From positions 1 through 64,000 of the IMG/VR virus record IMGVR_UViG_3300042549_007551: a stretch of DNA of 64,000 nucleotides; one strand, written 5' to 3'. Shown here one piece after another: positions 7,842 through 40,729 of the stretch (its first letter is position 1; each line of letters opens with the position of its first letter). Made by a program: the position numbers and the translations under genes. This DNA comes from a virus. The notes under the pieces were generated by a model. That model was not told the DNA's origin, made no database searches, and saw only the letters and a list, made by a program, of their open reading frames with translations.

Positions 7842-7850
7842 CTAATACAA

Positions 7851-7876
7851 AACCTTGCGGTGTATAGGTCAACCGC
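7851..7876 (+). promoter_or_regulatory. Repeated pseudoknot-forming leader motif, copy 1
   Basis: AACCTTGCGGTGTATAGGTCAACCGC; near-identical copy at 38478-38505 (-). Confidence 0.6.
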
Positions 7877-7900
7877 TTTCTTAAAGAAAGGAAAGACATT

Positions 7901-13923: not shown

Positions 13924-16900
13924 TTAACGGAGTGCAACACGACTACGTCTATACCGTACATACTGACGCCACTTTGTATTCTTAACTAAACTATAAGGAT
14001 TAACTCTAGGCTTACGCATAGTTCCGTACTTAGTAAACCAGTCTCTATAAATATTTTCATACTTAGCCCAACGTCCATTGCTACCATAAAGATAACGATA
14101 ACGTTTCGGTGTGTACTTTTCATAATCAGGTACAGTATACAAAGGTAATATGCCTGAACTTAATGGAATGATTGGGTTTTTATTCTTAGAAACAAACGGA
14201 GCTAAAGGACCTTGTGTTAACTGTTCTCTTACAGGTAACTTATTAAGTACGTTACTAATAGGACCTGCAATAGCTAACTGTCTTATGCTTTGTAAAACAT
14301 CTTTTGTTTCTAAAAACTTAGACAAACCTCTTAATAAAGGACGTTGTCTATCTAATAACGAACGACCTGGATCACTTAGTAATTTTTGTACATCAAACAA
14401 ACCAAACCCAAGACGTATACCAACACCATTATATATACGTAACCAACCGTTTTGCATTTCAAATAATTCAAATGGACTGTATTCTCCATCATCATCTGTG
14501 TATTGTCCATACACACCGTCAATAATATCACTCAATAATACAGACATTCTTGGATCTAATATACGATCAATCCAGTTTGTTAAGGAACGAACAGGGAAAG
14601 ATAAATAAGGTATGTCTGCAAGTAACTGCATTTCTAAAGGACTTCTTAATCCGTAATTAAAAAATCGTTTAAGAGAAGAGTTAACAGCTTCTTGGAAAGT
14701 GTAACCTCTTAACTGTCTGTCTAATAAGTAACCTGCAATACGACCTACGTTTTCTATGTTAGCGTTTAAATCAGAGTAAGTATATTTATAACCTTTATGA
14801 ACTAAACCTAATAAACCTTTATTAAATAAACCATTCTTTTCTTTTTCTATTTCATCATAAACTTCTTTAAAGGTTCTTGTTTCAGTATCATTGAAATCAT
14901 TTAACTTTCTTTCTTCTACAATATTTCTTAAGTACTCAAAAGTTTCTTGTCTATATACGTCTACTTGTGCGTTTGTTTGCATGAAAGCACTGACTTCAAA
15001 CAATATCTTTTTAAGATCTTCATAGTCAGCAGAGTACACAGGTTGACCGTTGCTATCTAAAGTAGTTTTATATTTTTCTAAACGTTTATTAATACGTTGA
15101 CGATAAAGATTTGTTTCTCCTGGATTAAACTTTAATGAATCGTACAATGTAAAATATTCTGCGAACCTTGTGTCCCCTAAAAAAGCTACTGATTCTTGAA
15201 GAGCAATATTATATGTAATATTTTTTAAAGCTTTTACATTTTTAAATTTAGAAGTAACTTTGATATTATCTAAATCTTTTATATCTTTAACACCAATAAC
15301 AACGTTTAAAATATAATTACCAATACCTTCTAAACGTTGACTAATTTCTTTTGCTTTAATTAAACGAGTTTCTATTCTTTTTTTAACATCTTCTTTTTTA
15401 ATAGCTTCTGCACCGTCAATATAATTTTTTAATCTATCTTTTATAATATAAAAGTTTTCTGTGATCGTTAAAACTTCTTCATTTGTTACGTTATCTTTCT
15501 TTAAAAGTAACGATAACATCTTATCATATGCAGTTTTAACTTCTAATAAACTTAATAAACGTTCTTCAGATACATCTTTATAAATGTTATAAACATCGTG
15601 AGTCAACCCCATGATTCTAACGATTTGTTTTCTATTTTTAAATGCACCGAAAACACCAAAGTCTTTATAGAGTTCACTATATAATTGAGTCCATGTATCT
15701 AAATAGTTTCTCATAATAAACCCATAGTTAAATCTCATTAATAACTTTTCAAGGTACTGTAACTGTGCTAATATGTTTGACCAACCACCTTTAAATCTAA
15801 ATGGTTTATAAGCTTGGTTATACAAACTCATTAATGAATCGATTGTTACAAATCCAAATTGTAAATTAACACCTTCATCAGCTTGATATTTTTTAATAAG
15901 ATTAAATATTTTTTCTAAATCTTTCCAACTTCTAACATCAATTTGTTTAGTAGTTAAAGATAAATCTTCTTTAAAATTAATATTATCTAAATCTACACTA
16001 GTATATTCTTTACCATTAAAAATAATTGAATTAACTTTTTTATCTTTAGGGTCATTTAATTGTTTGACATATGATTCTATTTCATCAAAGCTATTAAATC
16101 TTACTTTATCTCTATGCTTCGCCGCCCCTATGAACTGTTGCCAACGTGTTTTCTTTTCCCATTCTGGGTCGTTTTTTCTAAACAAATCACCAACACGTTT
16201 TATTAAACCTTCAGAAGCGTAACCATCTTTTACCACAACTAGTCTAATAAAATTAGAATTACGTTTAACATGTTCATACATTGTTTTAAAATCGTATACT
16301 TCTTTTTTAGTTTTGTTACCATTTTGGTCTACAACAATAATGTCTTTTTTATACATACTTGCTAACGTAATAAAAGGAACAACTGATTTATCAATGTTCA
16401 TTAAATTAGTATGTTTAATTCTTTCAACATCTTGTTTACTTAAAGTTTCTTCATCACCCATGATTCTAGGTATACCTTGCTTTAATAAATCCATGCTTTC
16501 GCCTTCAGGAGTATGTAATAAAAACATACCTTGAGCAAACTTACGTGAGAATATTTTAGATATAACTGCTAGTTTAATATCACGTCTTCTCTTTTCTAAC
16601 TCTAATAATTTCTTGTTAAAATAATCTAAGGTATCTTGTTTGCTAAGATCTTTGACTTCATCAATAGCTAACTTTACTTTATTTTCTTCGTTTGATTTTT
16701 GTAATATAAGATTACCTAATGTTTTTATTCTAATTTCTTTACGTTTTATTTCATCGTTTTTACTACGAAGATTATTGTCAGCCACATTTATTTCTTTTAT
16801 GTATCTTTCAATACGATTAAATGATAATTCTTTATTCAATAAACGAATTGCAATATCATTAACAGTCGTTTTATCAACAGTTTTATTTCTGCTGTTATAT

Positions 16901-19900
16901 ATTTTTTGTTTGTCTTCTGTTACTATTTTAAATTCTTTAAATGCGCTAATAAGAACATCTATTAAACTATCAATAGTTACTACGTCTCGTAAAGATTCTA
17001 AGTCTTGGTCTTTTATAAACTCTAAAGCAGTTAATCTTTCTAAGTCGCTGGCATTAGTTTGTTCTGAACCAAGCGCTTTGCTATAACTATTACCATACGG
17101 TTCTAATAATTCACTTGCAATAATACTTGCTTGTTCTTTTAAGGTAGATACAGTTGCACTGTTTTGACTTTTATTTAAACGTTGTGTAACGTTGCCACTT
17201 TCAATATCAATGTTAACGTAGTTAGCATCTACTTCTCTTGAGCTTAAAAAGAAATCTTTACTTGCTTGATACTTCTTATCTAGGTTTAAACGTAACTCTT
17301 CTTTGGCATTATAACCATTAAACTCAAGTAATAACTTATATAAGTAAAATGTTTTATTTAACCACGATATTTCTTTACGATCAATTCTATCATTTGATTC
17401 AGTACCACTGCTATAGCGTGCGTTAATTTCGTTATACGTATTATTTGCCACATTAAACAACCTTAAGATTCTATAAGCAGGCATTTTTATAGCAACTAAT
17501 TCACCTAAGAAAGCATTAACAGTACCTGTTACACCGTTAATAGTTACTTCCGTATCTAATGATTCTTCTAAAGCACCTTTGTTTTTGTAGAAAACAATTG
17601 CAACTTCTTTAATAATATTAAAATAATAAGTTGAAATTTCATCAGGTATTTTTGAATCAGGGAATAATTCTTTCTTAGCATATTGATTTATAACTGTAGT
17701 AATATCATCAATTGCTTTACTTTTTCTAGTGTAGCTTTGTGCTATTTGTACGTTTTTACTTTCTTCATTGTTGTCAATTTCTTTTTCTAATTCTAAATTT
17801 CTTATTGATAAATTATTTGTTTCAATAGGATCACTATCTAATCCAATTGCCAAAGCGTTTTCATGTGCTTCATCTAAACCAATCGTTACTTTTCTTACAC
17901 TTAATTTATCTACATTTTCTTTAACACGTTTTTTAAAGTCTCTTAAGAATTTAGTAACATCCATTCTTAAAGCACCGTGCTTTGCAATACCAATAATAAT
18001 TGTAGCATCGTTAGATTGTTTTCCTAAAATACCACGATCTATAATAACTTGATCTAAGTAATCACTACTATAGATATCAGCCATTGTACTAATGGTTGGT
18101 TTCTTTTTATCGTTAGTAACTTTATCGTTATCTTTGATTGCTTTTTTAAACTTTTTAACGTCTGCGTTATTTCTTCCAAAGTAAAATAAATGTAAATACA
18201 TTTCTTCTACTTCATTTAATTTAGTTTGTTCCATATTTCTTTTAACTAAGTCTCTGTATTTTTCTATTAAAGAACGATAAAAAGGATTTAGTATATCATC
18301 TTCTTTATTAGCAGGCTTTTGATAGTACTTATCAAAGTGTTTTACAATAGCACCCAATTTATATTCTGATTTTAAAGCAAACCCAAATGAAGACATCTCT
18401 TGTCTAACTAATAAAGATAAATAATTCTTATCAAAAATTAAACCTAAGATTTCATCAACACTTTCTTTAAAGTATTCTTTGTATTTAGCAGCATCTTCTT
18501 TATCGATATATACTTTTTTATCTTTATCATAAGCAACTTCTTTAAACCAACTATCATAAATAGTTTCGTTTAACTTTCCTTTAACTTTACTAATAAAAAC
18601 TTTCTTGTCTTTTTCTAGTTTATTTTTTCGGTCAGTAACATTTAAACTTAAATCAGATTCAATATTAATATCGTTAAGTATTCCTTTTAAATTTGTTGCG
18701 CTTAATATTTTATCTGAGAGTGATCTTATTGTTACAACACCTAAGTTAGATTTAAAAGCGTGCCAAGCATTTCCTGTTTGATCTTTATTCATACCTAAGA
18801 AAGGACTTATAATACTTGTTACGTTTTGTATTTTTCTTAAACCACCAAATACACCGATACCGTTTTTAGATGCTTGGAAACGTGTAATAGTTTCAATCAA
18901 ACTTTGAGTATGTAATATTCTTAAAAACAATTTATAAATAATTTCTTTATCTTTTTCGTTTTTTCTTTTGAAAATAGTTTCAACTTTATTTTCTTTTATA
19001 TATTGTTTATCTTCTAAACTAAAATGTTTTTCAATAACTTCATCATTAACTAATACTAAATCTTCTTTAGTCATGTACTTTGTAACATTGTATTTGTTGT
19101 TCTTGATGCTTTGATCAAACAAATAGTTTCTAGCTGCAATTTTATAAAGCGTTTCGTTTGTTTCTAATATTTTATTGACCGCATCTTTTGAATCATATTC
19201 TTTTAATTCAAAACCTTCGTATGCGTTTTCATTATATACTTCACGAATTGCTACGTTTAAAAAATACTTTTTAGCTGCGTCATCATTTTCCCAACCAACA
19301 ACTTTTGGTATTTCTATTTCGCTAATATCCTTTTTAATACCGGCAAAAATAGTTCCATATAATTCTCCAAAAGAATATGAGGTTCTAATAGGTGTGCCAC
19401 TTGCTCCTTTAAACACAGCTTTACCAACACTTGTTGCCTCAGTACTAATGACATCGGTTCTTCCGTTGCTTTTTACATTAGTAAGTAATTCTTTTCTTAC
19501 ACTTTCTAAGTATCCTTTTTCTTTCTTCTTAACGTTATTAATAGAATCCCAGCTCCAGAATCCTTCATCATAATAACTTTCTTTAGTAGCATCATTCTTA
19601 AAGAATAAACCTTTATTAAATTGTTCATTGTTTAAAGCTATCATACCGATGGTATCACCGTCGTTATCAGCACCCATCATTTTATACATGTAAGGATTTG
19701 CTTCAATAGTTTCATTAGTATGATACCCAACAATCTTTACTGTAGGTGTAGACTTAGCGTCTTGGATAGGCCAACGTGCAGCTAATACCCAACCAAACTT
19801 AATACCTTTATTATTTGTTACAAATTTTACTGTATATGTTTTACTATCAACAACATACATTTTGTTTTCTTTGCCACTTATATTGTCGTTTGTTATCCCA

Positions 19901-22900
19901 GATTTATTTAAGTGAATAATAAAATCTTCTAGTTCTTGTTTAGAAGATAATTTAACTTCGTCTTTGTTATTAACAATAGATACGCTGTTGTTTTTATAAT
20001 TTAAAGCAGTATTTATATTAAAACCATTTATTATTTTTGACCAAGAAGCGTCATCAATTCTGTCTATTTGCAGCCAATCCTTATTCTTGCTTAGTTCTTC
20101 CCATCCTTGTCTTGAAGTTCTTAGTTGGCCTAACATTAAATCAGTGTTAGCTAATAATTGTTGTCTAATACCAGGGTGTTTTCTATAAGTATAAGAAACA
20201 ATAGCACCTGTATTTCCAGTTAAAAATTCGCTAGCTCTATTCATAGCTTTTAAGTTTATTTTAGGTAAGATAATTGTTTCTAATTTTAATCTTGTTTCTT
20301 GATTGCTTGTTCTTATAGAGAAGTTTTTATATGTTAAGTAATTAATAACTTCATCTACCATTGGTGTGTTGGTTTCTAAACTAATTTTTTTAGCCATAGC
20401 TTCAATGTCATAAGTACCGTTTGATTTTTTAATAGAATACTTTTCAATGAAAGGAAGTAACCCGTTGTTTTGTATTTCACTAAACACTTCAATTTCGTTT
20501 CTATCTTTTTGATCTAACAATACTTTCCAATTCACACCTTGTGCTTCTAATATTGCTGAAAAGGATGGAGTTATTGGTACACCACCGATGATGCTACCTT
20601 TAATATCCCGTTCAGCAATGGATATATTTTCTTCTTCAATCAATCTAGTTCTAACATTCATTTTTTCTGCAGTATGTTCTGCATCTAAAATGACATATAT
20701 TTCACCGCGTTGAATATCAATTCCTTTAAAGTTTAAAGTATTAATATCTCCGTTACTTAAAATATTGTTAACAATTAAATCATCTTTAATAACATCATAT
20801 ATAATGTCATTCCATACTGAATGGCCATCTGATGCTTTACCAAAAATACCGTCTAATATTTTTGCGTAATCTTTAGCAGCATCTAATATGATCTTACCTT
20901 CTCTAATTTTAAACGTATCTTTTAATTCTTTTTCTTTACTTCTTAATACACTTAAGTTGTTTTTTGTTAAACCATACTTCTTTAGTAACGCGTTATCTGC
21001 AATATTTTTATAACCATCACCTTGTAATTCATCATTAACTAAATACATTCTAACTGCGTTTAAAGTTTGTTCTAATACTGCTCCACCTGCACCACGCTTA
21101 ACTAAAGATTCTTTGTTAGCGACAATATCAACGCCAAACTTTTCTTTTAAACCAACTACATAACGTATGCCACCCTTAAAACCCCACATCCCTAACCAAG
21201 TTTTATTACCTTCATCCATTCCTACAGCTTTAGCATACTCAGCATCAATTAACAAAGCGTCTTCAAAAGCACCTGGATGATTAATAAACCCAACAATAGT
21301 ATTAACACCTATCTTATGTAAGATATCTCGCTTATAAAATTGATATTGTTTTTCTGTTAAATAGTTAGGTGTAAAGATATTAATAACTTTATCTTTACCA
21401 TTCTTATCTTTATAGGTTCTTAATAATCTACTAGTAATGATTTCTTTTTCTTTTGGATCAGCGATACTATCAATAAACTTACCTAAGTTGTCTTCAATAG
21501 TTGTAGCGTTTAACTTATTTAAATCTTCGTATTCGTAATAATCATTAATAATCTTATAAGGAGTATACTCTAAATAAAGTTTATTAAACGATAATACAAT
21601 ACGCCCTGGGTTTGTATTTAATGTATGAGGCATATCAACATTAAGTGCTGTTAAAGGTGGGTTAGATTTACCAGCTGAACCTTCTGCAGATTTTTCTAAA
21701 TCTAAACTTAAACGCACTACATTTTTTCTAGTCCATATAATTAAAGGACTTGTTGAGTACTGTGGATCAACTAAAAATAATAATTTTGCAGGGTCATTAG
21801 CTTTAAACTTTGATAATATTCTGTCAGCAATACCTCGGTATACCTTAACAATGTCTGAATCTTTTTCGTTACGTTTCGCGCTTTGATAAGTATCATAATA
21901 TCTAAAGAATCTTTGCTTTAATACCGTTGTCATATTAATACGTTCTAATGCGCTGTCTGGTATAGCATCATCAAATACTACAGATTCTCTAAACGCTGCT
22001 ATTTCCTTTGCTTTAATTGCTTTATCTGTTTCGTCTTGGGTGTATTCAAACAAACCATCTTTTTGATGTTTAGCTGCTAGTTTAATAGTTTTTTCAATAC
22101 TGTTATAGCTAGCGTCTATTCCATCTTCTAAGTAAATAGCTTCTTTATTTAAACCTGAAAAACCTAACTTACGTTTTCCACTCTTATCCGTATAGTTAAA
22201 GAACTTAGTTTTTAACCAGCCTTCCATGTCTTCATTAGGCTTGGGTCTATAAACAATGTCTTTAGTTTTAACTTCTAAAATTTTACCTACTTCAACATAA
22301 GTATATCTAAATTTAAATGTTGGCATACCACCGCCAGTAGTAAACTGATAATAGTTATATATGTTATTTTGATTATCCATATAACCAACTAAATAAAAAT
22401 TATCAGATGGAGATTTAGCAAGAGCTATATCGTCCTTTACAATTAAAGCTTCTTTATCTAAACCACGATGAGCATCTTTATATACACGTTTAACATTTTT
22501 AACGCCTAGTTTGTTTATAAACGATTGCTCTTCTCTTTCAGTTGCTACTCGTTGTAAACCATCAAGACGTTCATCTGGTGTAAAGTTATTAATATTTTCT
22601 TCGTTTCCGTTTAAAACTGTAAAAATATTGCTTCTTTCAAATTCTGTTTTAATACGTTCTGTATTTCTTAAGACAGAAATAACTTCTAAAAATTTATTAG
22701 TAATAACTTCGTTATTAATTTCTGTATTGTTTTTTGGTACGCCAATCTTTAAATCATTTAAAAAACTAATGTTACTGTTTACATAGTCTAGTTCTTTTTT
22801 TAAAGCCAATGTAATAAGTGTTCTTAAATTAAACTTGTCTATGTTTTTAAGTATCTTTTTTTCTTCTTCAATAACACTTATTAATCCTCTAGCACCTTTT

Positions 22901-25900
22901 TCTTTACTAAGTAAAGATACTAATGAAGCGTATGTTGTATTATCTTTTAGTTCATTTTGTTTACTTACAAGAATACTTAAGGCTTCATTAAACTTAATAT
23001 TTAAATCAGTATCACTTGCTTTTAAATTACTTAACACAGGTTTAAAACTAGTTCCTAGTAAAGATTTACCTACAGTATTCCAAGCATCTTCTACTGTTTT
23101 TAATTTAATGTCTGCATCTTTTTTAAGTCCGGCTACAATTTCTTTAATCTTTTCTTCTATTTTAGCATCAATAATATTTCTGCCGTTTTCAATACCGGTA
23201 GTAAGTTTAACTAATTTACTTTGTCTTTCGTTAAATTCTTTTAATAACTTATTCTTTTCTTCATTTGTTTTTATTTTTATAATACTAGGATCAACCATTC
23301 TACTTAAAACATCTTTAACTTTTTGAGAGTTTAAATCTATTTTTTGGTCAGCATCTGCAGGAATCAGTGTTAATAAAATTTCCATTTCTTCTAAAGTTTT
23401 ATTTAATAACTTTAAGTTTTCATCTATTTCAAATTTTAACAAACCAAAATCAACACTGTTTGTTCTTATGTATTTAAATCTTTTCTTAGCATTTTCTAAC
23501 TGATTGTTTAAAACATTTTGTATACGATAAGATGTGTTGCTACGAATGTTTTTAATTTTGTCAGCAGCTTTTTTTATAATATTTTTTAAGTCATCGGTTC
23601 CTACTTTAGCAGTAACTATTTCTTTTTTTAAATTTTCAACTTCACTAATTATTTGATTTCTTTCTTTGATCAAAGCGTCTTGTGTAGCTTTAAGTTCAAG
23701 TACTTTTTCTTTATGTGATTTAACAGAAGATAAATTAACGTAAGCAATAAATTTTTTAATTTGTTCTATTTGTTTTTCTACACTGTACAAAGCTTCGTTA
23801 TATTCAAAATCATTTAATTGGGTATCTTTAATACCTAGTTCTTTTTTAACAGCTTTTCTTATTGCCATACCTGTACTGGCAATAGATACACCTTGATCTT
23901 CTTTTAAAACGCCATCTTCTAAATAGTTATTGTATTCAAGTTCTGTGTCTTTTAGTAAAGCATCTGCGTACTTTTCAATATTTTTACTTTCATCTGTGGT
24001 ATGTCTTAACTTCCAACCTTCAATAAAGTAAGCAACTAACATATCTTTTAGTCTAGCTTTTTCAGCAGGATCTTTAGTACTGATGTACTCTAATACAATA
24101 TTTGTAACTGATTTAATTTGTGAATTGTTTCCCGTAAATAAAGCTTCTTTAAGTTTTACATTAACTGTAATACCTAGTTTCTCTTCAATTTCTTTCATTA
24201 ATTTTGTTACAATAATCGAACCTATTTCTTGGTTAAACCTAGTCATCGCTGTTATATCAGCATCGGTTAAAGCAATACCTTTATTAACTTTGTTTAATAT
24301 GTTATTAATTTCTTTTTTATTTGCTTCAATAAGTTTTACTTCTTCGCCTTTATCTACAGCATCTTCTACACTTAAAAGATTTAAACGTTCTCTAACAGCT
24401 TTAGGATCGTTTTGTCTTATTAATTGATAGTATAAATTTGTCTTTAATGTTTTAGATAGTTTAAAAATAAACTCATTATAGTTTACAAAGTCAAAACGTT
24501 TACCGTTGTGTGCAACAATAGGTACTGTGTTAGGTAAAGCATTGATTTCAGAAACAAACAAGCGTATAAATTCAATGTCATTAGGTAAACCGGCAATATT
24601 TTTTATGGTTAAATCAATACGTTTAGTATAGTCATCTAATTCATTTTTAGTTAAGTTGTTATTAATATATTCTTCTAACGCTTTAGCATCCCAATATTTT
24701 TTCTTATTAATATCTGCCCATGCTTTAAAGCCTGCGCTTTCTTTAACATACATTTTAACTTGTTGATCATAGAATCCTTCAAGTTCATCTGACTTAGTAA
24801 TAGTTTTAACACCATTTGAATCTATTGTTTCTTCAATACCGTCTATAAAAATACGGTTTGTCATAAATTGGTTTAAAACATTAAACATTAACTTACCTTT
24901 TACACGTGTAACATTTAAGATTGTTAATTGATAAGGGGTTCTTCTTCCACTTTTTTCTGTAATAGTTTCCATGTCTAACACAACAAAACGATCAGGTATA
25001 TTTTTACCACTTAATTCAATTTGTTTCATGTAGTTAAAGAAGGTAACGATGTTATCAACAACAGCGTTGTGTAAGTTTATACCTTTTTCACCATCAATAT
25101 TAGTGCTTTCAATTAAATCAAGTAATGCTTGTTTACCACCTTGATAGTAGTTTCCTGCTTCAGTAATAATACTATCTAACAGTGCTTCTCTGCTAACATC
25201 TTCTTTTATCTTATAGTTATTTCTATAAGTATCTAAGTTACTATTACCGTAAGGTTTGTTTTTCTTAGCTTCAAGTAAAAGATTATCATGTCTTAACTTT
25301 ATAGGTGCACTTTCTTCTTCTAATAAATCAATTCTTTTATTTAGTTTAGAAATCTTATCAGGATTTACAACTGTGTACGTATTGATTGAGTCACGTCTAT
25401 TTTTAAGAGTAGATAGTTCTGCATTTAATTGTTCTTTACTTTTAATTAAAATATCTTCTTCATCATTAAAAGCTTTTACTTCATTACTTAATAAATAAGA
25501 AACAACTTCATCTTCTTTAACTAAACTAATTCCATCTTTTGCAACACGCTTAACAATGTTCTTAATAACATCTTCTGGTTTTTGATTCCCATATTTATTT
25601 ATGTTTTCTAAAGCAGTTTCAGCACTCTTAATGTTTTCTAAAGTAGTTTTAATATTACTTTTTAATTTCTTTAAATTGTAAATTAACTTTGAGAGGTCTG
25701 TATTTTTACTATTAATAATAATGTTATTTACACTAGTAGAAAATTCTTCTCTTAAAGTTTCTAATTGATCTAATGTGTATTCTTCTTTTTCATCTTTTAA
25801 AATCTGTAAAGACTTTGTTTTTAATTTTAAATTAAATCCACTTGATTTAAAATAAGTTGTGTCTTCTTCATTTATCTTATAGATAAGATTTTTTAAACGC

Positions 25901-28900
25901 TTATATAGTTCTTCACTCTTAAGCGTATACAAAACTTTATATTTATTTGTTTCTTTTTTAACTGTTTCTTTTGTAAGATCTTTCTTTTTTATGTTTAATT
26001 TTTTAAATTTGTAGTCTAAAGCTATTTGTATGTAAGTTGCAACCATAAACTTTTTAAAAACATTAGTATATTTTCTATCATGTGGTTTGTAATCAACACC
26101 AGTTAACTTGCTATCTTGTAATTCTTTGACCTTGTTATCAATTTCTTCTTCATAATTTTTAAAGTCTTCAAATTCATACGTAAAAATAAATTCATTTTCT
26201 AATTCCTGTAAGATGTACTTAGCTTTGTCTAAGTATTTATTTTTTCCTTTAACTAAAGAAGCGGTAGCTTCTTCATTTAATACAAGTTTATTTAAATCTT
26301 GTTGTTCTTTTTTAACAAGTTCTTTTGTAGCTTCTTTTATACCACTAAAATAAACTGTTCTAATATTATTTAGATAGTATTTTACAGAAGCAATCTTACG
26401 TTCTTTAGCGCTTTGTGTATCTTCATCTAAGTAACCTTCATTAACGATGTATTGGTTAATGTTATCTATTCTTTTTTTATTTTTTTCTTCAATGTTTAAA
26501 ACAATCTTAGTAAACTTTTTCCATGAATTAGTTTTAATCTTACTGTCTTTAGGACCGGTAGATAAAGTTTGTTCTAAAGCATCAATATCATCTAATTTTT
26601 TATTAGCATTTAATATGAAATCTTTATATCCAGCTGCATTTGTAATATTGATTTTATATTTCTTTAATATTAAAATAGATTTACTGTTATATAAATTTTG
26701 TAATTTCTTTTTACGTATGTTCTTAAAAGCTATATACTCGTTTGTTTTAAAATAAGTTTTTTCTGCCTCAAGTTCAATTAATATTTTTTCTCTTTCTTGA
26801 AAAAATTCTTTAGGTATAAACGCTTTAACTTTTTCTAAAGCTTGTTTGTTTTCTTTTTCAGCCTTATCTAAAACAGTTAACCAATAGTCATTAAATTCTT
26901 TCATTAAACCAGGATTGTTATTATAAATATCAATTAATAATTTTTCTTTATATGCTGCGTTTTTATCTTTTAATACTTCTATGCTGTTGTTAATACCACT
27001 AACAGCTTCTTCTAGTTTACTAATAGCTTTATTTAAACTAGACATGTTCTTATTAATTATTGTGTTTTCATTGATATCAAAATTATAGTTTAACTTAAAC
27101 CCTCTTTGGCTAGCGTTAACAACTTTTAACTCTTTCTTTAATTCATCAATTGTATCTTTAATACTTAACCAAGTAGTAATAGTAGGCAATTGTTTTAGTG
27201 CCATCTCACTGTTTGCAGCCATACCAAGCTCAACAGTATCATAAACATTACGTGTACTTGCATCTAGTTTTAAACTACTTTCTAAAACATTAACAAGGTT
27301 TTCTATTTTTTCAATACGATCTTCTGCTTCTTTACGTTCTGATTTTGACATGTTGTTTAAAACAGATTCAGGATAAATTAACTTTAATAATTTTTTAACA
27401 CCGTGAACACTCTCAATATTGGTAGCAATTTCTGATAGTTTTAATAATTGATTACTAATATTAGCTTCTTGTATATCCATTAACCCTTGTAAAACAAGTT
27501 TTTCACGGTCTTTAATACCTTCTTGTGTCTTTAATTCAAACTTTTGTACAAGGATATAACCCATAATTGCTTTTACTTGCTCAATGTTAACGCCTATTAA
27601 ATAACCGCGGCTGTTAAAATACTTAACAATATCTTTTAATGCTTCTTCTATTTCAATAACTTTCTTAGGATCGTTAATTGTTTTAACATATCTTTCAAAA
27701 TCTTTTTTATAAAGAGTAATATATTTTTTATCTTGTTCTAAAACTAATAAAGCACTACCTATTTCTTTCATCTTAACAAAGTCGTACTTATCTACACCGC
27801 CTTTTAATAAACTTAATACATTTGTATATCGTGTCATTAAGTTTAAATAAACACTGTCTGGGTTTCTAGTGGATACTTTATCAATTGTTTCTGCATAGTC
27901 TTCATTAATAGAGTGAAAGCTAAAATCAGCCAGTGTTTGTTCTATAACTTGTGCCATAGTACTTTGATAAGAAGGATCTGTATTAGGTTTAAACACAGCA
28001 CTAAAAGCATTTCTTGTTGCTTCTCTAGTAATCTTATTAATATTATTTGGCGTAGTCATTAACAACTGTGGCTTAACAGTTACATTAGTATCAGGTGTAT
28101 CTTTTTCTTTTAAAACAATAATGTCTAGTCTATCGTTAATGCCTTTAACATAAGAACCTGCATTACTTAAATGACTTACACTATTAAATATAGATCGTAA
28201 AATACTGTTTTCAAATGGGTCATCTTGTTGTTTAGTTTCAAAAATATTTAAAGCTTCAAGTTTTTTAATACGTCTAATGTTCTTTTTAGCTGCACCAATT
28301 CTAAATTTATTAACTGCATCTTGCCAAGACCATTGTTGTTTAAACTCATTGTTAATAAACTGTGTTTTAGCAAAGTTAATAATGTTTACAAAAGCAAACA
28401 TGTTATCGTTTTTGCTTATGGTGTTATACAACACATCCATGATTTCATCTAATGTATTGTATTTTGTAAATAAATTTTCAACAGTTTCAAAATCAATACC
28501 TAAAGAATTAAATAATTTCTTAGATAAACTAATTCTTTTTTCTTTTTCATTGTGAGTATGACGTATAACGTTACCTTTATAGTCTTTAAACCCAAATAAA
28601 TATTCGTATAAGTATACTTTAAATTTTTTATTATCATCTAATAAAGGTAAATTTATTAAATTGTAAACTTCAAAAGGACTTTCAAATTTGTTTTCTTTTT
28701 TATTTCTTAATAAGTAAGACATAACTTTAAAGACATTATCGTCAATAGGACCTAATCTAGTCTTACCGCTTTCTTGTTTATACTTGTTTAAATCTATTTT
28801 AAATTGTTTAGCGACAGTTTCTATCGTTGCGTTTTCTTTCTTTAATCCACCATAAAACATAATGTTAATAAAAAGCTCAGTCATATTTCTTGCTTCTTTA

Positions 28901-31900
28901 TCTTTAATGCTGTCTAAGTATTCTGAAGCACTGCCAAAGTTTTTAATAAAAGTTGGTTTAATAATTGCTTTACCGGAGGTGTCTCCAAAGAATACGTCTT
29001 CTGCTTTGTTAACAATACTTTCTATGGTTTCTTTAACTACGTTATTAAAAGCAGAAGGAGTTGTTTGCGTTATATTATCAAGAATAACGTCAGTAATATT
29101 AACACCATTTTCTTCTCTAAAATCTTCTTTTGGTTTTTTATACCAGTTCTTTACATTATCTTTATCTTGAATTCTTAAATCTTTAATCATACTTTCTAAC
29201 GTAACAGTACTCTTTGGATCTTTTTCAAGCATCTTTTTATAGCTTAAAGAAGCATTAATTTGTAAATAAATTTCGTTTGTTTTATTAGCATGTAAAGAAA
29301 TATTGTTTATGTATTTGTTTAATGTTGTTTTTAAAACATCTTTTTTAATGCTATTAATTTCTGCGTCACTAACTGTTTTAATGTTGTCATCAAACATAGT
29401 ACTATATTTCTTTATATAATTTAAAATTGCATTAACTTGAGGGTTATTTGTTTTAACATCGGTTATTAATTCTGCTAAAGTCATGTCATCTGGTAACTCA
29501 AGTACGCTTTTTAATTGATTAAAGTAAGTATTAATTGTATTTTTAATAGCAATTTTAATACTTAAGTAGTCTTCATTTTTAAATTTATTAAAAATAGAAT
29601 CATCTATATTTAAATAAGAAGCCAGACCAATTAAAGTTTTATCATCCATACGATCAATATCAAAAGTACTAGGTAAGTTTTTTATTACGTAAAATAAGTT
29701 AGTCCAGTTTAAATTTGTAGCAGTGCCTCTAACCCTAGCGTTATTTGCTTTAGTAGATTCTTTATACAAAGCTCTACTACGTCTTAGCTGTGCTGCTAAA
29801 ACGCTTTCTAATGATACACCTTCAGTTTGTTTGCTGTTAAATTCTTCTTTTAATTCATTGATAAGATTTAACATTCCAACTTTTTGTGCATTAAACAAAC
29901 CTTTGTTGTATTCTTTTTTACCGTTAACTAAAACAAATGTTTTGTTTTCTGAGTGCTTTAAAATATTATTTCTGGTGGACATTTCTTTAGCAGTAATAAA
30001 ACCTTCAAGCCCTGAACCAAAATAATCTTGTAACTTTTTAATAAGTTTTTTGTAATAAATATTATGGGTGTACTTTAAAGAAGATACAAAACTATATGCA
30101 ACGTCTTTTAATTGTTCTATTGTTTTTAAAAACTCTTTATTATAGATATCGTTATAGTTATTAAAAGTAATATCTTCGTTCTTATATTCTTTTTGCATAA
30201 CAATAAGCGCATTTTTAATAGCATCTAATAGTGTTATTTTAATATCAGGTCCTATGTTAGTTGCATTTATTTTTATCTCTGTTAACTGTTCATATAAACG
30301 ATAATTTTCTCTTCTTAAATCAGATTCAAAATTATTAAAGTTATAATTTTCTTTAATGTAACGATCAGTAAAAAAGTTTCGTCCAATAACATCTATATCA
30401 AAAGAACCAAAATCATTGTATAAAAGTTCTAAAAATCTAGCAAAGGCTTTTTCTTTTCTAGCTAGTCTTACAACCCTTTTAAACAAATTGGTTTGGTTAA
30501 AATTAATATTAACAACATCACCAGGTTCTACAATAGTGTATTCTTTTTTTATTCTGGCAAACTCAGTCAACTTTTTAACAAGGTCTTCTCTGCTTAACTT
30601 TAATCTATCAGCTAACTTTTGTAGGTTTTCAACATCTTTTAAGAACCCACCTAAGATACCACCTTGTCCACTTCTTGAAGTTGAGCTCTTAATATTTATA
30701 TAGTTAGATTTTAACTCTCCATTTATATTTCCGTTTTTATCTTTAGTAATAACGTAATCAAAAGTATTAATATATTTCTTAGTCCTTCTCATTTCTAATA
30801 TATCTTTGTGTTGTTCCTCAGTCATGAAGTAAATATTTTTATCTTTAGAGGTTTTATCTTTTAGAGCAAATTTTACAAGGTTATTAAATTCTGAAAAAGC
30901 CGTTTCAAGATTGTCTTTGCTAACAATAATAACTGCACCAGTTTCACTGATGTCTCTTAAAGTTAAAACATAAGGATCGTATCCTTTTTCTTTTAAAACT
31001 TTAGCTATTTTTTTACTTCCTTCTGTATGTAATTCAGTATTGTGTTTGCTTATAATTTTCTCACCAATCTCAGAGTTATAGTTAGGTAATCCTTTTACAC
31101 CTGATTCATCAATATTTGAGTTGCCATTACCATCATAGTGTTCTACCACCATGTATTCTTTTGTCGCAGGATCATAAGCAATAGCAATATTACTATCATC
31201 AGAAGTACTTCTGTTGTTATAAAACATTGTTTCAACTTTTTCAGGGTTATCAACTATGTATTTATAAAAAGCATTAAAGTCTTCTTCTAATGCTTTATCT
31301 TTGATATTGTTTCTAAAGTTTTCATACGCATTAATACGTCTTTGAATATCGATAACTTCATTTTCTAAATCACTAATTTGGTCTTTAATGTTTTTACTCT
31401 TACTATCTTTTCTATTTTTTAATAAAGCTATACGGTTGTTTTGTCTTAACACAACGCCATTAAGTTCTTCTATTTTGTTTAATGTAGCTACACCTTTTCC
31501 TACAGTACCTTGATAAAAGAAAACCTTTTTAACTAATAGTTCTTTGGTTTCTTGTGGTATATCTTTTGCATCTAACACATACAAAATAAATAGTATGTCA
31601 CTACTTACAGGTTTATTAATTGTTTTACCGTTTATAACAACAGTTGTTTCTGGTTTTTTAAATTCTGTATTAGCTTTTTCTAAATAGTAAAATATCTCTG
31701 GTTTTAAAACTAATTGTATATTACTATAACGATTTTTTCTTTTTAAAAATTTAGGGTCTGCAGATTCATATTGAGTTTCTAAGAACAGTAAAGTGTTTAA
31801 ACTTCCGTATGCATTAATGAAATTAATATCATTAACTAAAGCATATTCTTCATCTGTTCCTTTAAACAACTCTCTGCTAATTGTTAACGGTGCGGTTACA

Positions 31901-34900
31901 ATACTACTTCCAAATTTTTTAACGGCGTCTTGGTATTCATTTAATAGTTTATTACCAAGTTCACTAGCTGTTTCAGGTGTTAACGTACCTTTAGCAACTG
32001 TATTTGTTTTTAAACGATCAATAATACTAGACACAATTCTTATGTTTACATGGTGTGTTAGTAAGTATTCTAATAAGTAAACTTTTCTAGATACTTTATT
32101 TTTGTCATTTTTAATATAAATAACTATTTGTTTATCTTCAAAAGCAAAGTAATCTAACTCTTTAAAATCAACTTCTTTTTTAAATGCTTTATCAGTTTCG
32201 ATAAAGCTGTTTAAAAAGTAAACAACTTGCATTAATCCGCTCTTTAAATTAAATGCTGGTTTAATACTATTTTCATCTTCATAGTTTCCAAACGTTTGAA
32301 AGTTAGAGAAAGTAATAATATCATCTAATAAATCTTTATGTTTATCGTCACTAATAGAAAGTGCTTTGTACACACTTGTACTTAAAGTATAGTGCCGATC
32401 ACTAGATGCTCTGATATCTTTTATTTCTGTAGCACGTATACCTTTATCAATAATATTTTTTAGATAACGATGTTTATTATTAAAGGCATACAAATCTTGC
32501 AGTTTAATAGTCATTATCTTTAGAGCATTGCCAGCTATTAATTTATATACATCAGCAGTAATTGATTTATCCCCGCTAATTAACTTTTCAATAAAGTCTT
32601 TTAAATAATCTTTATCATACTCAATATTATTTTCATCAAAATAATTACGTATAGATTCATTAACAGATTGATAGTAAATACGGTTTAATCGTTTTTGTTC
32701 CTTACCATCTAAAGGTAGTTTAATATCAATATCTTCTTCTTTGTTATAAAGATCACCTAAAAGTCTTATCTTATAGCTGTCACTCTTAAACGTTTCACCA
32801 CGTTTACTAAATACTTTGACCTTCTTACCTTCTTTAGAGTTGGATAAAGTATCCCAATCTATTGTAATTACTTTTTCTTTATCTAAACGAACAAGTTCTT
32901 TTAAAACTTTTTCTAAAAAATAATAGTGCCCAGAGGATGTTCTTTTTAATCCCTTTAAAGTTTCTTTATAACTTTTTGCATCGTCTATTGTTTCACTGTC
33001 ACTATTTATAAACATCGCCATTCTAAAATTAAACCTTAATTCTTTAATATTTAAAACACTAAAACCACCGGCTAGTATTTTCTTTAAAGCATTGTAAGGA
33101 TTGTTTTTATCTTTTTCAATATCACTTGTACTTAATTTAAATAATAAATTAGTTAATAAAGATTGAGGTATATTTTCTAGTTGTTTTACAATCGTGCTTT
33201 GAACACTTAATGTACTACTAACTGCTTTTTTAATTGTATTCTTTTTAGCTTCTTCTTGTTTTCTAATTTCCTTAGTTTCAATCAACTCTTCAATCATCGT
33301 GTCGTACTCAGTTAAAAATTCTTTATCACTAAGCACTTCATCTTTTTGTAAGATGTATTCACTTTCAACAACATTGCTTTCTCTTTCTTCTAAAAATTTA
33401 ATGAAAGCTGTATCAATGCTATTAAGTTTACTAACAGCATCTGGTATAGATAGCTTGTTCCAATTTTTTAATTCGTCTTCTGTTATGAAATCAGGGAGTA
33501 ATTCTTTCTTTGCTTCGTCACTTAAAAATAAATTAATATCTTTGTTAACATTAATACTGTTATAGTAATACGATTTAACATATGAATACATTTCATTGTA
33601 TTGTAAAAAGTTATTAATACGTCTTAATTCTTGATCTAAAATATCTTTAATAGCTTTCTTATCTGCTTTATTTTTTTCTGAATCAGAATCAAGAACCTTA
33701 GTTATTTTTTCAATTTGTTTATCTGCACGTTCAAATAATTTATTTACTGTATCTAACTTTTGTTTAAACAAACCATTCTTTTGATTTAATAACTTATAAA
33801 AAACTATTTCTTTTAACTCTGTTAAGCTTACATCTTCAACACTTCTAAAGGTAGGTTTATTTTTGTTTTCAATAACTTTATTGATTGCTTCAACAACACC
33901 TAAAAGACCTCCGAAACTTTTAACTTTATCTGCTGATATATAACTATCTAACTCTAACTTTTTTATAATTCTAATTAATGTGTTTATTTTAGCAGCAGTC
34001 GTTTGTTTGTCCCAGTTTTTTTCGATGTCATCAGCATCAAAGTTTATTAATCCTTTTAATAATAAAGTAGTTTCAAATCCATCTGGAAGTAAGTTATAAA
34101 TTAAACTAACGATATCTTGTTCAATTGTTTTAACAAAAGAAATTTGTACATCAACTACTTTCTTTTTTCTATTACTAGGAGTAATTGTTTTTAAAGTAGC
34201 TCTTTCTATTTCGTTGCCGTCTTTATCAACTAAAGCTACCTTAATTCCATATTGATTAGCTAGATCAACTAATGCATCACCTTCGTCACCTTCAATAAAC
34301 TCATCAATAGCACGTTGTTTATTATACGTATTACGTTGTACATCTTCATCTTTTTTAGGATTGTTCTTAATAATTTCTAACTTATCTTTTAATGTTTTAA
34401 TTGTTGTAGCTTTTTTATCTTGTGCATTTTGTATTTTAGTAATGCTGGTTTCTAAAGCAATAATTTCCTCAGACGCTTTTAGTTTTTCTTCTCCAGTAGC
34501 TTTAACATTTTTAGTAATCTTTAAAAGTTTATTAACTTGTTTTTTTAAATCAACTTTTTCTTTTTCTAATTCTTTATTTTCTTCTTGTAAAGTAGCAAGT
34601 TCTTCATTAATAACTAAACTACTTTTAATAAAAACAGTTTCATTAGAAAATATTTTAAAACCATTAATTACTTTTAAAACGTTAAACAAACTTTGTTGTG
34701 CAACGGTAGTTAATTCATTTACATGTACAAGACCAGCGTCCATAAGAACAAATACTTGACTCAAAACTTTACGGTGTTTAGTAATATACGTATAGTTTAA
34801 TAAAGCATTTCTTTTTGCTACATATTCAAGCGTAACTTTATCATTACCTTTTTGTCCGGCTTTTACAACGGCGTCTAAATCAGGTCCTGCTTTTTTTTCG

Positions 34901-37900
34901 TAGTCACTAACTTCAGTTTGTATTCTTTTAAAATTCTTTTTATTAATAACAATTTTAATACCACTACTAGTTTCATAATTTAAAACAGGGTAATCAATGT
35001 ACTCTTCATTTTCTTCATAAGCTTTTTTTCTACTTTCAAGCGCTTGTTTTGCTTGATCTAAAATATCACTTTGACTATCAATAGTATCTTTTTCTGCACT
35101 TTGTTCAACCTGTTCTTTTGTTGTTTGTTGAATAATTTTAGATAATGTTTTATTAGTTTTCTTTTGCTTGTTTAAAACTTCATCAAAAGTTTCATTAGAT
35201 TTTTTAACAGAGGTACCTGTTTTATTTATATCAATAAGTTCTTTATTAATTGTATTAACGTCTTTTTCAATTGCTTCAAATTTTTCAATTGTAATAGCAG
35301 CTTGTTTAGGATTAATGTTTCTTCTTAAATATTCAAAAAGTTTTTCAACAGAAAAAGATAAACCTTTAAAAGCAACTGACATAGGGTTTGCTACGTGTGT
35401 TACTATTCCAGCAAAACTATCTACATTATCAATATGATTTTTTAAACTTTCAAAGTTGTTATATAAATTAGAACTAACTTTAGAATTGATTTTTAAATCA
35501 AAGTCTTTATAAGCTTTTGCTAATAGTTGTCCTTCACTTAACGAACCACCGTACAATGTTTTAAGTTCTCTAAATGTATTATCAAAACGACCTATTAAAG
35601 CTATTTGATTTTCTGTAGGTGTTGTACTCTTACGAGCTTGTTTGTATCTTCTATAAGAATTTTCTAATTCATTTTTAAGTTTAGCTGAACCTACTTTATA
35701 AATATAGTTTTTATTTTCTAAAACATTTGTAAATAAATTGTCTAAAATATTAAGCTGTGAAGAAATATCTAAAGTATACACTCTAGCCTTTTGTCCAAAC
35801 TGAATACCACCAGAAGCAAATTGTTTGTATAAAATTTCTTGTACACCTTTTCTACCGTTGCTTATCCAAGCTCCTACTAATTGTTTTAAGAAAGCTTGTT
35901 TAGCTGTAGGATCGTTTATCTTAAAACTAAAAACGCCATCTTCATCCACAAGTTTTCCTAAGCTGTTAGCTGCAGCTTTTGTTTTACCTGTCATTTTTAA
36001 CTTACTAGTTTCATGTTCAACTATTCTTGATAGCACATTAGTACCAACGTCTATCGTATAAGTTTGGTAATACTTATTAACAACTTCGTTAAAGTTTTGT
36101 GGGTCAATTAAAAGCTCACCTAATGTAGATATTAAAGAGTTTCCTATTTCACCTAAGTTTAAATTAGCAGCTTCACGGATATCATCAAACATAACTGATC
36201 GATATAACTCGTTACTATAACCCCAAGATTTTGCTAAAGCATCAGTCATTGCTTTAGAATCACCTGAAACTAAACCAAGTAACACTGCTTTGTTTCTTGT
36301 AGCACCATATAAGTTATCGTTAATATCCCCGTATAAAGATATTGCAGAAACAAAACTAACATCATCAGGATCGGTTGCTTTCCAAGGACTAAATTGATCA
36401 TCTAAAGGAGCGGTAATACTAGTAACTGCTTGTAATGTCATCATTGATAATCCTGCTCGAACCTGATTACCAAATGCGTTTGTACTTAACCAACTACCTA
36501 TACCAGTTAACGGGTTGTTTTTACTCAGTAAACTAAGATTTTTATTGATACGTAAACCACTACTCAACCATCCTGTTAAAGCTGGTACTGCAATCGTTGT
36601 TAATAATGTAGCAATCGAACTAATCGGACGTTGCATCATACCTGCATATAAGTTTTGTGCAAACATTTCTTGTGCTTTAGCACCTTCTGGACTAAATGAA
36701 CGACCAACAGTTCTTCCTACTAAAAATCCTTGTAGTGCTGAAACAGCTATAGAAGCTACTGTACCGATGCCGCTTATTGCTGAACCAATTAAACCACCAC
36801 CAGCAACTTCTATTGCGCTACCTGTTAAAGCAACTGTATCTGATATAAGTGCTAATGCATTAAATGCTGTATTAAATATATCGCCTTGTTGAACGCTTTG
36901 AGCTAATCCAACTGCTGAAGTACCTAAACTATAGATGTCTGCGGCGATACCTAAACCAGGCACAAATCTGGCGCCTGCTTCACTAATACTTTTAAAGAAT
37001 GTTTTACCAGCTTGCGCGCCTTTTTTTATAGTAAGTTTTGCTGCATCAACAATAACACCATTTGTTTCTAATATTTTAGCAGCTGCAGTTATAGTTTTAG
37101 AAGCGTCATTTACAGTGTTTGTAATACGCGCCGAATCATTTAACATGTTAGTAACGTCTACAACATCCTCAGCTTTTGCCGCTATTTTAATAGCTTCATC
37201 ACTATTTTTTACAATTGAATTACCAGCATCTACTATTTGTTGTTGTGCTAGTTTAACGCTTTGATCTAAGTTTACTAAATCTTTTTGTGCAAGGTCAAAA
37301 GCTTGTTGAGCTTGTATCTTTAAAGGATTATTTTTACCTAATCGTTTTACTTTTTTTAAATTAGCTTCTGCTTTAATAAAACTTTTATCAGCAATTTTCT
37401 TTAGCTCTACATTGTTTGTTAGTGTAGCTTCTAAAGTAGCTTTATTTACTTTAGATAATTCTAAGTTTTTAACACTTTCAATAAACTTAGGATCATAAGT
37501 TTGTAATGTTTTTTTAATTTTATAATCTTGTTTTAGTAAATCATTTGCACTTTTTACTTGTTTATTATAATCAAGAACAAGCGATTCATTAGCTTTAATA
37601 TTTCTTAATTGTTTAAATCTTGCGTCTTGATAACGTGCTCTTTTAGGATCAAAGGTAGTAGAAAAAGGATTTTGCCATGATTCTTTTTTCCAGAACTTTT
37701 TATCAATTAATGCTGAACGAAGGTACCCACTGTTTAAAGCAGCGCCTACACCTGCACCCACAAGACCGCCTAAGTTACCAAATAAATCATATGTTCCAGT
37801 ATCTTCTATCCCATATCGGTTTCGAATGCGCTCCATAAAATCTTCGTTGTTAACAGCAAAAGGTGAGATTGCCCATTGTTGTAATGATCTTACAAGTACT

Positions 37901-38518: not shown

Positions 38519-40513
38519 CTACTCTACGTTAGAGCCTTCGTCGTTGCCAGTACCCTTTGCGCCTAAAACATCTTCTTCAAGAGTATCTACAAATTTCTTT
38601 AAGTATTCAGCACGGATTGCTTTGAATTTTCCATCAACTGTATCAATTGGTGCGGCACCAAGAGCGTTGTTAGCAGCAGTGAGTAATTTTTTAAATACAA
38701 ACGCTTTAACTTCAGTTGAGTATTGTGCGGTTGCAAACACAGTACCATTAGGTTGTTTTAATTCAACCGTAATTGGGTGCAACACAACATCACCTTTTTT
38801 ATATTCGACACCAGATGTGTAAAACTTATAAGGATTTTGACCAGCGATGTTTGACGATCCAACTAAACCACCGCGGTTAACGCCATCAACACGTAACTTA
38901 CCTGCACCATCAACACCAATAGAGTTAAAGTTATTTTGTTCATACGCTTCAGCTTCAGTTAAGAAACTTGGGTCGTAGTTCTTATTGATAACTTTTTCAG
39001 TTAATGCAGCAAGTTCTGCGTAACGTGGGATTCCAAACGTAACAACAACAGCTTCAGGACGCTTAATTGCTAATCCAAAACCATCGACTTTAAATCCAAT
39101 AGATTGACGTTGATCGATAGGATCAGCAACACCTGAAGAACCTAAAGCTTTAATAATAATCTTAGGAGCATCTGAGACACCTTCCATGGTTAACTTCACT
39201 AACGCTTCCGCGCCAAATAAAATACCACGATGGACCGGTAATTGCATGAATTCACCGCTATCGATGTATCCATTAATTTTCGCTAAGTCACCAGATTCAC
39301 CAGCTGCCACAGGAGCATACGTCACAACGCCAGTAACCGCGTTAATCGTACGGGTTTGCTTTTTAAGAACCGCAGTGGCTGCTACTGCTTCAGCTGTTGC
39401 GGATAACATAACAGTTGCAACAACAGGAGGAGTCGCACCTGCGTCTGCTAACACTAAATTAGTAGCAAGCGTACCAGTAGGAATTTCCCACTTGATTAAT
39501 TCGTCAATAGCCGATCCATCTTTAAGATACGAAGTACCTGCAAGATTAGATTTAGCTTTAACGCCAGAGCTAACAACAAAGTCTTGATGAATGTCTAAGT
39601 ACCAAATTGTGCTAGTAGGGTTACCACTAACTGGAGCAATTGGTTCAACTGCGTATAAACGGATAACTTCAGTACCGTCTGCTTTTTCATAGACGCCTGG
39701 GAATTCAATGTCAGGATATGCAAATTCATCTAACATCGTTGGGATGAAGGATAATTCAAACATATCGAATTGTTGGCCCGTAGTCCAAAGTTTACCAGTA
39801 GTTAATTCAATTTCCATATATTGTTTCACACGTGGGTCATCAATTAAACCATTGATGAATTCTGGTGAACACACATAGTTGAACTTACCGCCGACAGGTT
39901 TAACCATCATGCGTTTCATACGTGATACTAAGAATCGAAGATCATCTAAACGGATTTCATCACCAAAATGTAATTGAGCAAAGCCTGTTTTAAAGCCAGC
40001 ATAAAATTCATTTGGGGTAGCTAACCAGGTCTTACGTGCATACAGTTCTTTGGTTTGGTTGGCAACTTCACCATATTGAACTGAACGTTCAGCAAGAACT
40101 TCGTTAACAATGCTTAAGTCTAGCTTGTCAGTATATTCTGACCAGCGACCAAACGAGAACACGTTACCAACTTCAATAGTTTCGTAAGCATGTTTGTCTG
40201 GTGAAGGTGGGATACCTTCTTTTAATGGAGTCAAGGTTGGAGTTAATCCAGCCCAACGACGGAAACGAGCAGTCGTGTCGCCTCTGCGAATCGTTAACGT
40301 TTCTGCAGCAGCTAAGTGTACGTAGTTTTCTTCCCCGTACTTGAGAGAGTCTAAAAGAATAGTGTTGTAAAAAATGTTGGGATCAAACCCAGCACGGTAC
40401 ACACCATCTTTGTCGTAAAGCATTCCAATGACGGTATTTACGTTTTGCAAATTATGCAAAGGTAGCAACGCGTCTTTTGAAAGCTTTATATTAGCGTCTG
40501 ATAAAATGGCCAT
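38519..40513 (-). CDS. Major capsid protein, N4-gp56-like family (664 aa, with insertions)
   Basis: FRRW..LTPLKEGIPP, FGRWSEYTD and GSSGVADPIDQRQSIGFK motifs. ATG 40513 follows AAGGAGG (ORF track starts at 40600). Confidence 0.85.
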   Translation of the reverse strand: MAILSDANIKLSKDALLPLHNLQNVNTVIGMLYDKDGVYRAGFDPNIFYNTILLDSLKYGEENYVHLAAAETLTIRRGDTTARFRRWAGLTPTLTPLKEGIPPSPDKHAYETIEVGNVFSFGRWSEYTDKLDLSIVNEVLAERSVQYGEVANQTKELYARKTWLATPNEFYAGFKTGFAQLHFGDEIRLDDLRFLVSRMKRMMVKPVGGKFNYVCSPEFINGLIDDPRVKQYMEIELTTGKLWTTGQQFDMFELSFIPTMLDEFAYPDIEFPGVYEKADGTEVIRLYAVEPIAPVSGNPTSTIWYLDIHQDFVVSSGVKAKSNLAGTSYLKDGSAIDELIKWEIPTGTLATNLVLADAGATPPVVATVMLSATAEAVAATAVLKKQTRTINAVTGVVTYAPVAAGESGDLAKINGYIDSGEFMQLPVHRGILFGAEALVKLTMEGVSDAPKIIIKALGSSGVADPIDQRQSIGFKVDGFGLAIKRPEAVVVTFGIPRYAELAALTEKVINKNYDPSFLTEAEAYEQNNFNSIGVDGAGKLRVDGVNRGGLVGSSNIAGQNPYKFYTSGVEYKKGDVVLHPITVELKQPNGTVFATAQYSTEVKAFVFKKLLTAANNALGAAPIDTVDGKFKAIRAEYLKKFVDTLEEDVLGAKGTGNDEGSNVE

Positions 40514-40729
40514 ATAAGCCTCCTTGTTTTTGTTAGAGCTCGCGTAACAACTTATCGTATGCAGATCCGCTTTTAATAAAAAACGCCAGAAGGATAGCAT
40601 TAAATAACATAACTTAAAATGGTTATATTACTTCACTACTCATTCTGGCGTAAGCATCCATGTATAAATTGCCGAGTTTTACACACTTCGATCTGGACAC
40701 TAAAGTAGTCCGCTACTATCTACGCATAT

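Follow-up and report, generated by a model that had tools for sequence, protein, structure and literature searches.

We analysed positions 1 to 64,000 of the IMG/VR virus record IMGVR_UViG_3300042549_007551, hereafter the window, in which a single giant open reading frame (ORF) of 8,038 amino acids (aa; 13924..38040, minus strand, as are all features of this ORF given below) translates without a stop and carries both an exonuclease-like domain and a DxDGD polymerase motif. Structure modelling confirms that aa ~4320-4545 (24406..25083) are predicted to form a highly diverged DnaQ/DEDD-type exonuclease fold, and we lean towards reading this domain as a highly diverged, functional DEDDh-type 3'-5' exonuclease in which the order of the motifs along the chain has been rearranged. 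Membership in the DEDD superfamily holds at the level of fold and motif only.

Both motifs that a first-pass annotation, made from the letters of the window, had assigned to such an exonuclease stand at the residue level. Its ExoI string, RFVVLDMETIT (aa 4351-4361, 24958..24990), forms strand β1 and carries the invariant residues D4356, E4358 and T4359, and its ExoII string, PIVAHNGKRFDF (aa 4507-4518, 24487..24522), forms strand β4 and carries the invariant residues H4511, G4513, F4516 and D4517 with the TREX-type spacing HNGxxFD. The positions proposed were exact, and the unusually long gap of about 150 aa that had been remarked upon measures 153 aa from ExoI to ExoII, compared with 84 in Escherichia coli epsilon (E14 to H98). 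Conservation of the motifs in homologues and the presence of an RNase H-like fold had been set beforehand as the observations on which the assignment would stand or fall: D4356 and E4358 of ExoI and H4511 and D4517 of ExoII are invariant in 11 of 11 homologues, and modelling predicts the DnaQ-type version of that fold.

An AlphaFold2 model of the domain (250 aa, aa 4311-4560), built with 17 aligned relatives, had a predicted local distance difference test score (pLDDT) of 80.8 and a predicted template-modelling (TM) score (pTM) of 0.73, with residues 21-120 of the model at pLDDT about 87-96. The core is as expected for the fold: a β1-β2-β3 meander is followed by helices, by β4 parallel to β1 and then by a helix, the ExoII helix (aa 4517-4543, 24412..24492), within which all structural alignments to solved DEDD enzymes end. 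Between β3 and β4, the secondary structure of the model shows an insert made of a β-hairpin and four helices (aa 4393-4506, 24523..24864), where the relatives have alignment gaps; within this helical insert lies a stretch of ~25 aa (aa ~4428-4452, 24685-24759) that is unique to this phage and absent from all relatives. When the domain model was used for a fold search, the top nine matches listed, and most of the others, came from one superfamily, DEDD, and a model of a longer, 401-aa segment (pLDDT 74) returned the same families. The residue register was read from the ends of the structural-alignment ranges, with the E. coli numbering verified from the genome: model residues 41-222 correspond to epsilon 7-118 and model residues 39-222 to E. 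coli exonuclease I 8-123. D4356 thereby falls on epsilon D12 and exonuclease I D15, the whole ExoI D-x-E is in register with epsilon D12/E14 and exonuclease I D15/E17, and D4517 falls on epsilon D103 and exonuclease I D108. Neighbours of the domain in a protein language model carry RNase_T and RNase_H_2, at 0.87-0.89, which we take as a lead only.

The family to which the domain belongs is small and peculiar to giant proteins. Among 1.84 billion representatives, an exhaustive HMMER search detected no more than 15 relatives, each a giant protein of 7,630-7,662 aa or a short piece of one, and no ordinary DnaQ-family protein; the full-length relatives overall are 7,630-7,698 aa long. Conservation was counted on two alignments, one of 11 sequences that cover the exonuclease domain (mean pairwise identity 34%) and one of six full-length giant proteins (27-29% identical). 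The domain alignment has 15 invariant columns (H4324, N4325, D4329, N4336, D4356, E4358, T4359, P4369, F4398, L4420, F4423, H4511, G4513, F4516 and D4517), 11 of which fall inside the three motif stretches, that is, ExoI, ExoII and the upstream stretch described below. Across the 8,038 positions compared in the six full-length proteins, D4356-x-E4358 is the sole invariant D-x-E, and two of the nine invariant His residues lie inside the exonuclease domain, His making up 0.65% of the giant chain. The domain is a conservation island: per 100 residues it has 14, 7 and 11 invariant columns, against 0-3 in the rest of the poorly conserved middle region, a level comparable with that of the polymerase block.

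One further sequence bears on where such proteins occur. A 1,252-aa protein on a 1.42-Mb NCBI contig (P0141) shares 97% identity with fragment P0005. Its alignment with the giant protein spans aa 4130-4885 and keeps all three motifs, with its last ~120 residues unaligned; it may derive from part of such a phage lodged in a cellular genome, and so hint at the host.

To score the motifs, we used position matrices for ExoI, ExoII and ExoIII built solely from E. coli DnaQ, Orn, ExoI, RNase T and ExoX, which were slid over the six-protein alignment with the score averaged over the family, single-sequence scans being too noisy. The top of 4,627 windows for the ExoI matrix was aa 4353 (z 6.4), and the ExoII site at aa 4507-4518 came second for the ExoII matrix (z 5.6). 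The pattern HNG..FD, expected 0.0005 times from the composition of the protein itself, is seen once. The family profile aligns ExoII to TREX1 CLVAHNGDRYDFP at E 0.2-0.3, which is not significant alone, and the other recurring sub-threshold PDB match to ExoII is to the exonuclease domains of family-B polymerases. By these sequence statistics, the resemblance of the motifs exceeds chance.

ExoIII is where the domain departs from the canonical layout. The first-pass annotation could identify no ExoIII after ExoII, and this is borne out: beyond ExoII, the wider family keeps no acidic or His residue in common, and the canonical C-terminal ExoIII is missing. The structural alignments all stop at epsilon 118, exonuclease I 123 or TREX1 ~144 and none passes the ExoII helix, so that they end at least 44 residues before the ExoIII of epsilon (H162/D167) and of exonuclease I (H181/D186); the region after ExoII is all helix in the model, at lower confidence. 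The fourth acidic residue, for which a search had been proposed, does have a strong candidate in the pair H4324/D4329, but it lies upstream of ExoI and outside the interval first assigned to the domain. In this candidate permuted ExoIII (LHNAVVD, aa 4323-4329; feature at 25012..25074), H4324, N4325, D4329 and N4336 are invariant in 11 of 11 sequences. The spacing H4324-x4-D4329 is that of a DEDDh ExoIII, a hydroxyl or small residue stands at H+9 as in RNase T, ExoX and exonuclease I, and the site is the top of 3,446 windows for the ExoIII matrix (z 4.9). The 8,038 aa contain just two invariant H-x4-D pairs, of which this one lies 27 residues before D4356-x-E4358.

The second of these pairs, at aa 869-874 (~35419-35436, minus strand), is an observation in its own right. 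It reads HIDNVD in the giant protein and HMDLSD or HMDLTD in most relatives, with H869, D871 and D874 invariant, and ranked third against the ExoIII matrix; it may mark another catalytic site.

The model suggests how an ExoIII encoded upstream could reach the active site. H4324 precedes an 18-residue helix (aa 4326-4343, pLDDT about 95), whose first turn, the N-cap region, holds D4329 and which a 7-residue loop joins to β1. D4329 is 14 residues from the end of the helix and D4356 is 5 residues into β1; in epsilon, D12 stands 5 residues into the aligned part, which starts at residue 7, and the last helix, which we take to end near residue 180, would leave D167 about 13 residues from its end. 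A helix and the strand that follows it normally run antiparallel, so the start of the upstream helix should lie at the same sheet edge as the end of β1 that bears D4356 and E4358. As modelled, joining the canonical C-terminal ExoIII helix to the domain's own N terminus would give the arrangement seen, and the title of PDB entry 2gui, with its 'cyclized versions' of epsilon, indicates that the ends of the domain can be joined. In hhalign comparisons of native and permuted family alignments with a five-paralogue E. coli profile, the local matches were weak (P 0.01-0.03), and the permuted alignment, likewise weakly, sets the upstream H and D on the H and D of the E. coli ExoIII. None of the DEDD alignments listed extends into the upstream helix. 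Taken together, motif and model evidence suggests a circular permutation, ExoIII-ExoI-ExoII, that restores the full DEDDh set.

In the mechanism that we propose, ExoIII, with H4324 as general base and D4329 as metal ligand, would sit at the start of the helix directly N-terminal to β1, and the chain would run from ExoIII through ExoI (D4356, E4358) and an insert of ~115 aa to ExoII (D4517). The upstream helix would take the ExoIII position in space. D4356, E4358, D4517 and D4329 would then hold two divalent metal ions and H4324 would activate water, for two-metal-ion hydrolysis of the 3'-terminal phosphodiester and the removal of nucleotides from a free 3' end.

Several results weigh against this reading. 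Pfam RNase_T (PF00929) had no match at E ≤ 10 in the giant protein and 12 family members, and a six-frame PF00929 search of the virus record gave 0 matches, with the control genomes matched. Profile matches in the PDB fell on ExoII only, at E 0.1-0.3, and the best Foldseek match reached E 6e-3 with a TM score of about 0.2, none being found at E ≤ 0.001 in the PDB or BFVD. An equivalent of β5 is not predicted in the domain model, two hhalign shuffle designs were unstable or uninformative, and the upstream motif fits the E. coli-type ExoII (H-N-A-x-x-D) equally well, again at rank 1 (z 5.8). Nothing significant came from Pfam and PHROGs searches of the giant ORF, both whole and limited to the region, from Pfam searches of each family member, or from phmmer against the PDB. 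Because the RNase_T profile and the canonical ExoIII position both failed, we do not file the domain as an ordinary family member. We assign the upstream motif to ExoIII rather than to ExoII on account of its place at a helix N-cap, with no strand before it and no conserved domain upstream; the stretch from aa 4200 to 4320 has just four invariant columns. An alternative origin, with HNxxxD as the ExoII of a degenerate duplicate domain, was considered and rejected, there being no strands and no conserved D-x-E upstream.

Could the domain have the DEDD-like fold and yet be an incomplete enzyme? On such an account ExoIII and β5 would have been lost, the domain would serve as a scaffold that binds nucleic acid or metal, or as a weak nuclease with three carboxylates, and the upstream HNxxxD helix would owe its conservation to packing alone. 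We consider this somewhat unlikely. The solved inactive DEDD-like domains have generally lost the acids of ExoI and ExoII (pol alpha; for Maelstrom, PMC2628886), whereas here D, E and D are invariant. In addition, a His, rare in this chain, and an Asp are invariant in the exact H-x4-D spacing at a helix N-cap that points towards the active-site edge of β1.

The exonuclease domain lies ~1,770 aa upstream of DNDGD (aa 6125-6129, 19654..19668), a metal motif of the two-barrel RNA-polymerase type in which D6125, D6127 and D6129 are invariant and which is conserved in P0001-P0004; the language-model neighbours of the polymerase region are phage fused RNA_pol_Rpb2_6 / Rpb1_2 proteins (0.80-0.85), again a lead only. 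The first-pass annotation had described the exonuclease-like domain as fused upstream of the polymerase, and the two do share one chain, but they are not adjacent, as ~850 poorly conserved residues lie between the domain and the conserved polymerase block. From its place beside capsid and tail genes, its lack of cysteine (0 in the 8,038-aa protein and 0-1 in five full-length relatives) and the polymerase motifs on the same chain, we infer that the giant protein is packaged and ejected, like crAss-like gp66 or P23-45 gp96.

In vitro, single-stranded or denatured DNA is a good template for crAss-like gp66 and double-stranded DNA a poor one. Given this preference for single-stranded over double-stranded DNA, the role that we prefer by analogy is on DNA 3' ends, and we suggest tentatively that the domain may act on them as soon as infection begins. 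It might, for instance, resect the entering genome to provide a single-stranded template for the two-barrel virion polymerase. The full proposal ('resect-and-transcribe') is that a single ejected polypeptide would make its own template: its permuted DEDDh exonuclease would resect one strand at the end of the entering genome, and its polymerase, with a preference for single-stranded DNA, would then transcribe the strand thus exposed. This is more speculative, and we give it a low probability.

The same permuted DEDDh exonuclease might instead serve the polymerase on RNA, by trimming or proofreading the 3' ends of transcripts or by removing short RNAs. This seems doubtful: the ~850 poorly conserved residues keep the domain apart from the polymerase block, ExoII is closest to the DNA enzymes TREX1 and TREX2, and two-barrel polymerases are generally known to cleave backtracked RNA in their own active site. 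Equally doubtful is a use of the enzyme against the host, in which the targets degraded right after ejection would be host DNA, host RNA or linear oligonucleotides used in defence or signalling. No direct evidence points to such a role, DEDDh enzymes as a rule need a free 3'-OH, so that cyclic signals are not substrates, and one copy per ejected chain would be few for bulk degradation.

That the domain is an active exonuclease in canonical order, with the fourth ligand and general base coming from a downstream helix (E4572, E4619) or from elsewhere in the chain, is improbable. The region following ExoII is helical, and E4572 and E4619 are the only residues of that region that are invariant in the six giant proteins; in the wider family, however, both vary (K, N, Q, L) and neither has an accompanying His, no structural alignment continues past the ExoII helix, and pLDDT is lower downstream. 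A chance resemblance of the motifs with no exonuclease-type domain behind it, in keeping with the lack of a significant sequence match to any exonuclease family, is very hard to square with the invariance of the motifs, the rank-1 scans and a fold search dominated by one superfamily with the catalytic residues in register.

The record from which the window comes has 75,790 bases, is estimated to be 77% complete and represents a phage without a close cultured relative. The stretch is found again in metagenome runs from lake water and fresh water, and no RNA run is listed among the sequencing runs that carry it. The genes for the major head protein, the tail proteins and the portal are on the same strand as the giant ORF, and a replication module (primase, helicase, family-A DNA polymerase, exonuclease and a Sak4-like protein) is on the opposite strand. 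The major head protein (693 aa, 38519-40600, minus strand) is only distantly similar to the capsid proteins of Paenibacillus and Bacillus podophages (~31% over 40%). In tblastn searches of GenBank phages with the exonuclease domain and the polymerase region as queries, no similarity was detectable. In the tail region, a 1,912-aa ORF (51559-57297, minus strand) matches the PHROGs family 'regulator of chromosome condensation', with RCC1-like repeats (E 8e-27), and has a second, weak PHROGs match to a tail protein. ARAGORN found neither a transfer RNA nor a transfer-messenger RNA in the whole 64-kb window.

Within the giant protein itself, conservation is strongest at both ends (aa 1-100, 400-700 and 7400-8038) rather than in the exonuclease or polymerase parts. 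The count of invariant columns per 100 aa peaks at 38 in aa 7801-7900 and is 24-31 in aa 401-700. Pfam and PHROGs searches of the giant ORF gave no family for these conserved end regions.

Virion RNA polymerases are the first enzymes that a phage brings into the cell. A conserved exonuclease on the same chain would be a concrete and testable answer to how those that prefer single-stranded DNA obtain their template in vivo. If the reading of a permuted enzyme is true, an ExoIII placed before ExoI would show that a very common nuclease fold tolerates natural circular permutation. The rearrangement would then also account for the failure of profile searches to detect the domain, and its relatives will escape annotation pipelines built on the order ExoI-ExoII-ExoIII.

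Among known nucleases, the domain is most like the TREX- or DnaQ-type DEDDh exonucleases, whose fold and motifs it shares. In TREX1 and TREX2, ExoIII (which we take to be His195/Asp200) is C-terminal to ExoII, whereas the H-x4-D of the giant protein is upstream and nothing is aligned beyond TREX1 ~144; the giant-protein domain also differs in its 115-aa insert, in its setting within an 8,038-aa chain and in the absence of a significant sequence E-value. Epsilon has H-N-A-A-F-D as its ExoII, in place of H-N-G-x-x-F-D in the giant protein, and its ExoIII (H162, D167) is C-terminal, whereas the candidate in the giant protein is N-terminal to ExoI. DnaQ-type proofreading domains, such as epsilon and the PolC exonuclease (2p1j), have a DNA polymerase as partner, where the giant protein has an RNA polymerase. 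E. coli exonuclease I (SbcB) and the Cas2-DEDDh fusions keep the canonical motif order, in cellular or CRISPR-adaptation contexts.

On the polymerase side, crAss-like phi14:2 gp66 and Thermus phage P23-45 gp96 are large virion proteins that share with the giant protein a DxDGD-type motif and a genomic setting among structural genes. The words 'exonuclease' and 'nuclease' occur 0 times in the papers on gp66 and gp96, whereas the giant protein carries an exonuclease-like domain; it is further set apart by its chain of 8,038 aa and by having no detectable sequence similarity to GenBank phages. A DEDDh nuclease beside a viral RNA-synthesizing enzyme is also found in coronavirus nsp14 ExoN and arenavirus NP, but these belong to animal RNA viruses, have the canonical motif order and are not among the fold matches listed. 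In the literature searched, neither a circularly permuted DEDD exonuclease nor a nuclease on the chain of a virion polymerase is described, an absence that is not proof of novelty. If the arrangement proposed here is true, it would be, to our knowledge, the first case in nature of a circularly permuted DnaQ fold.

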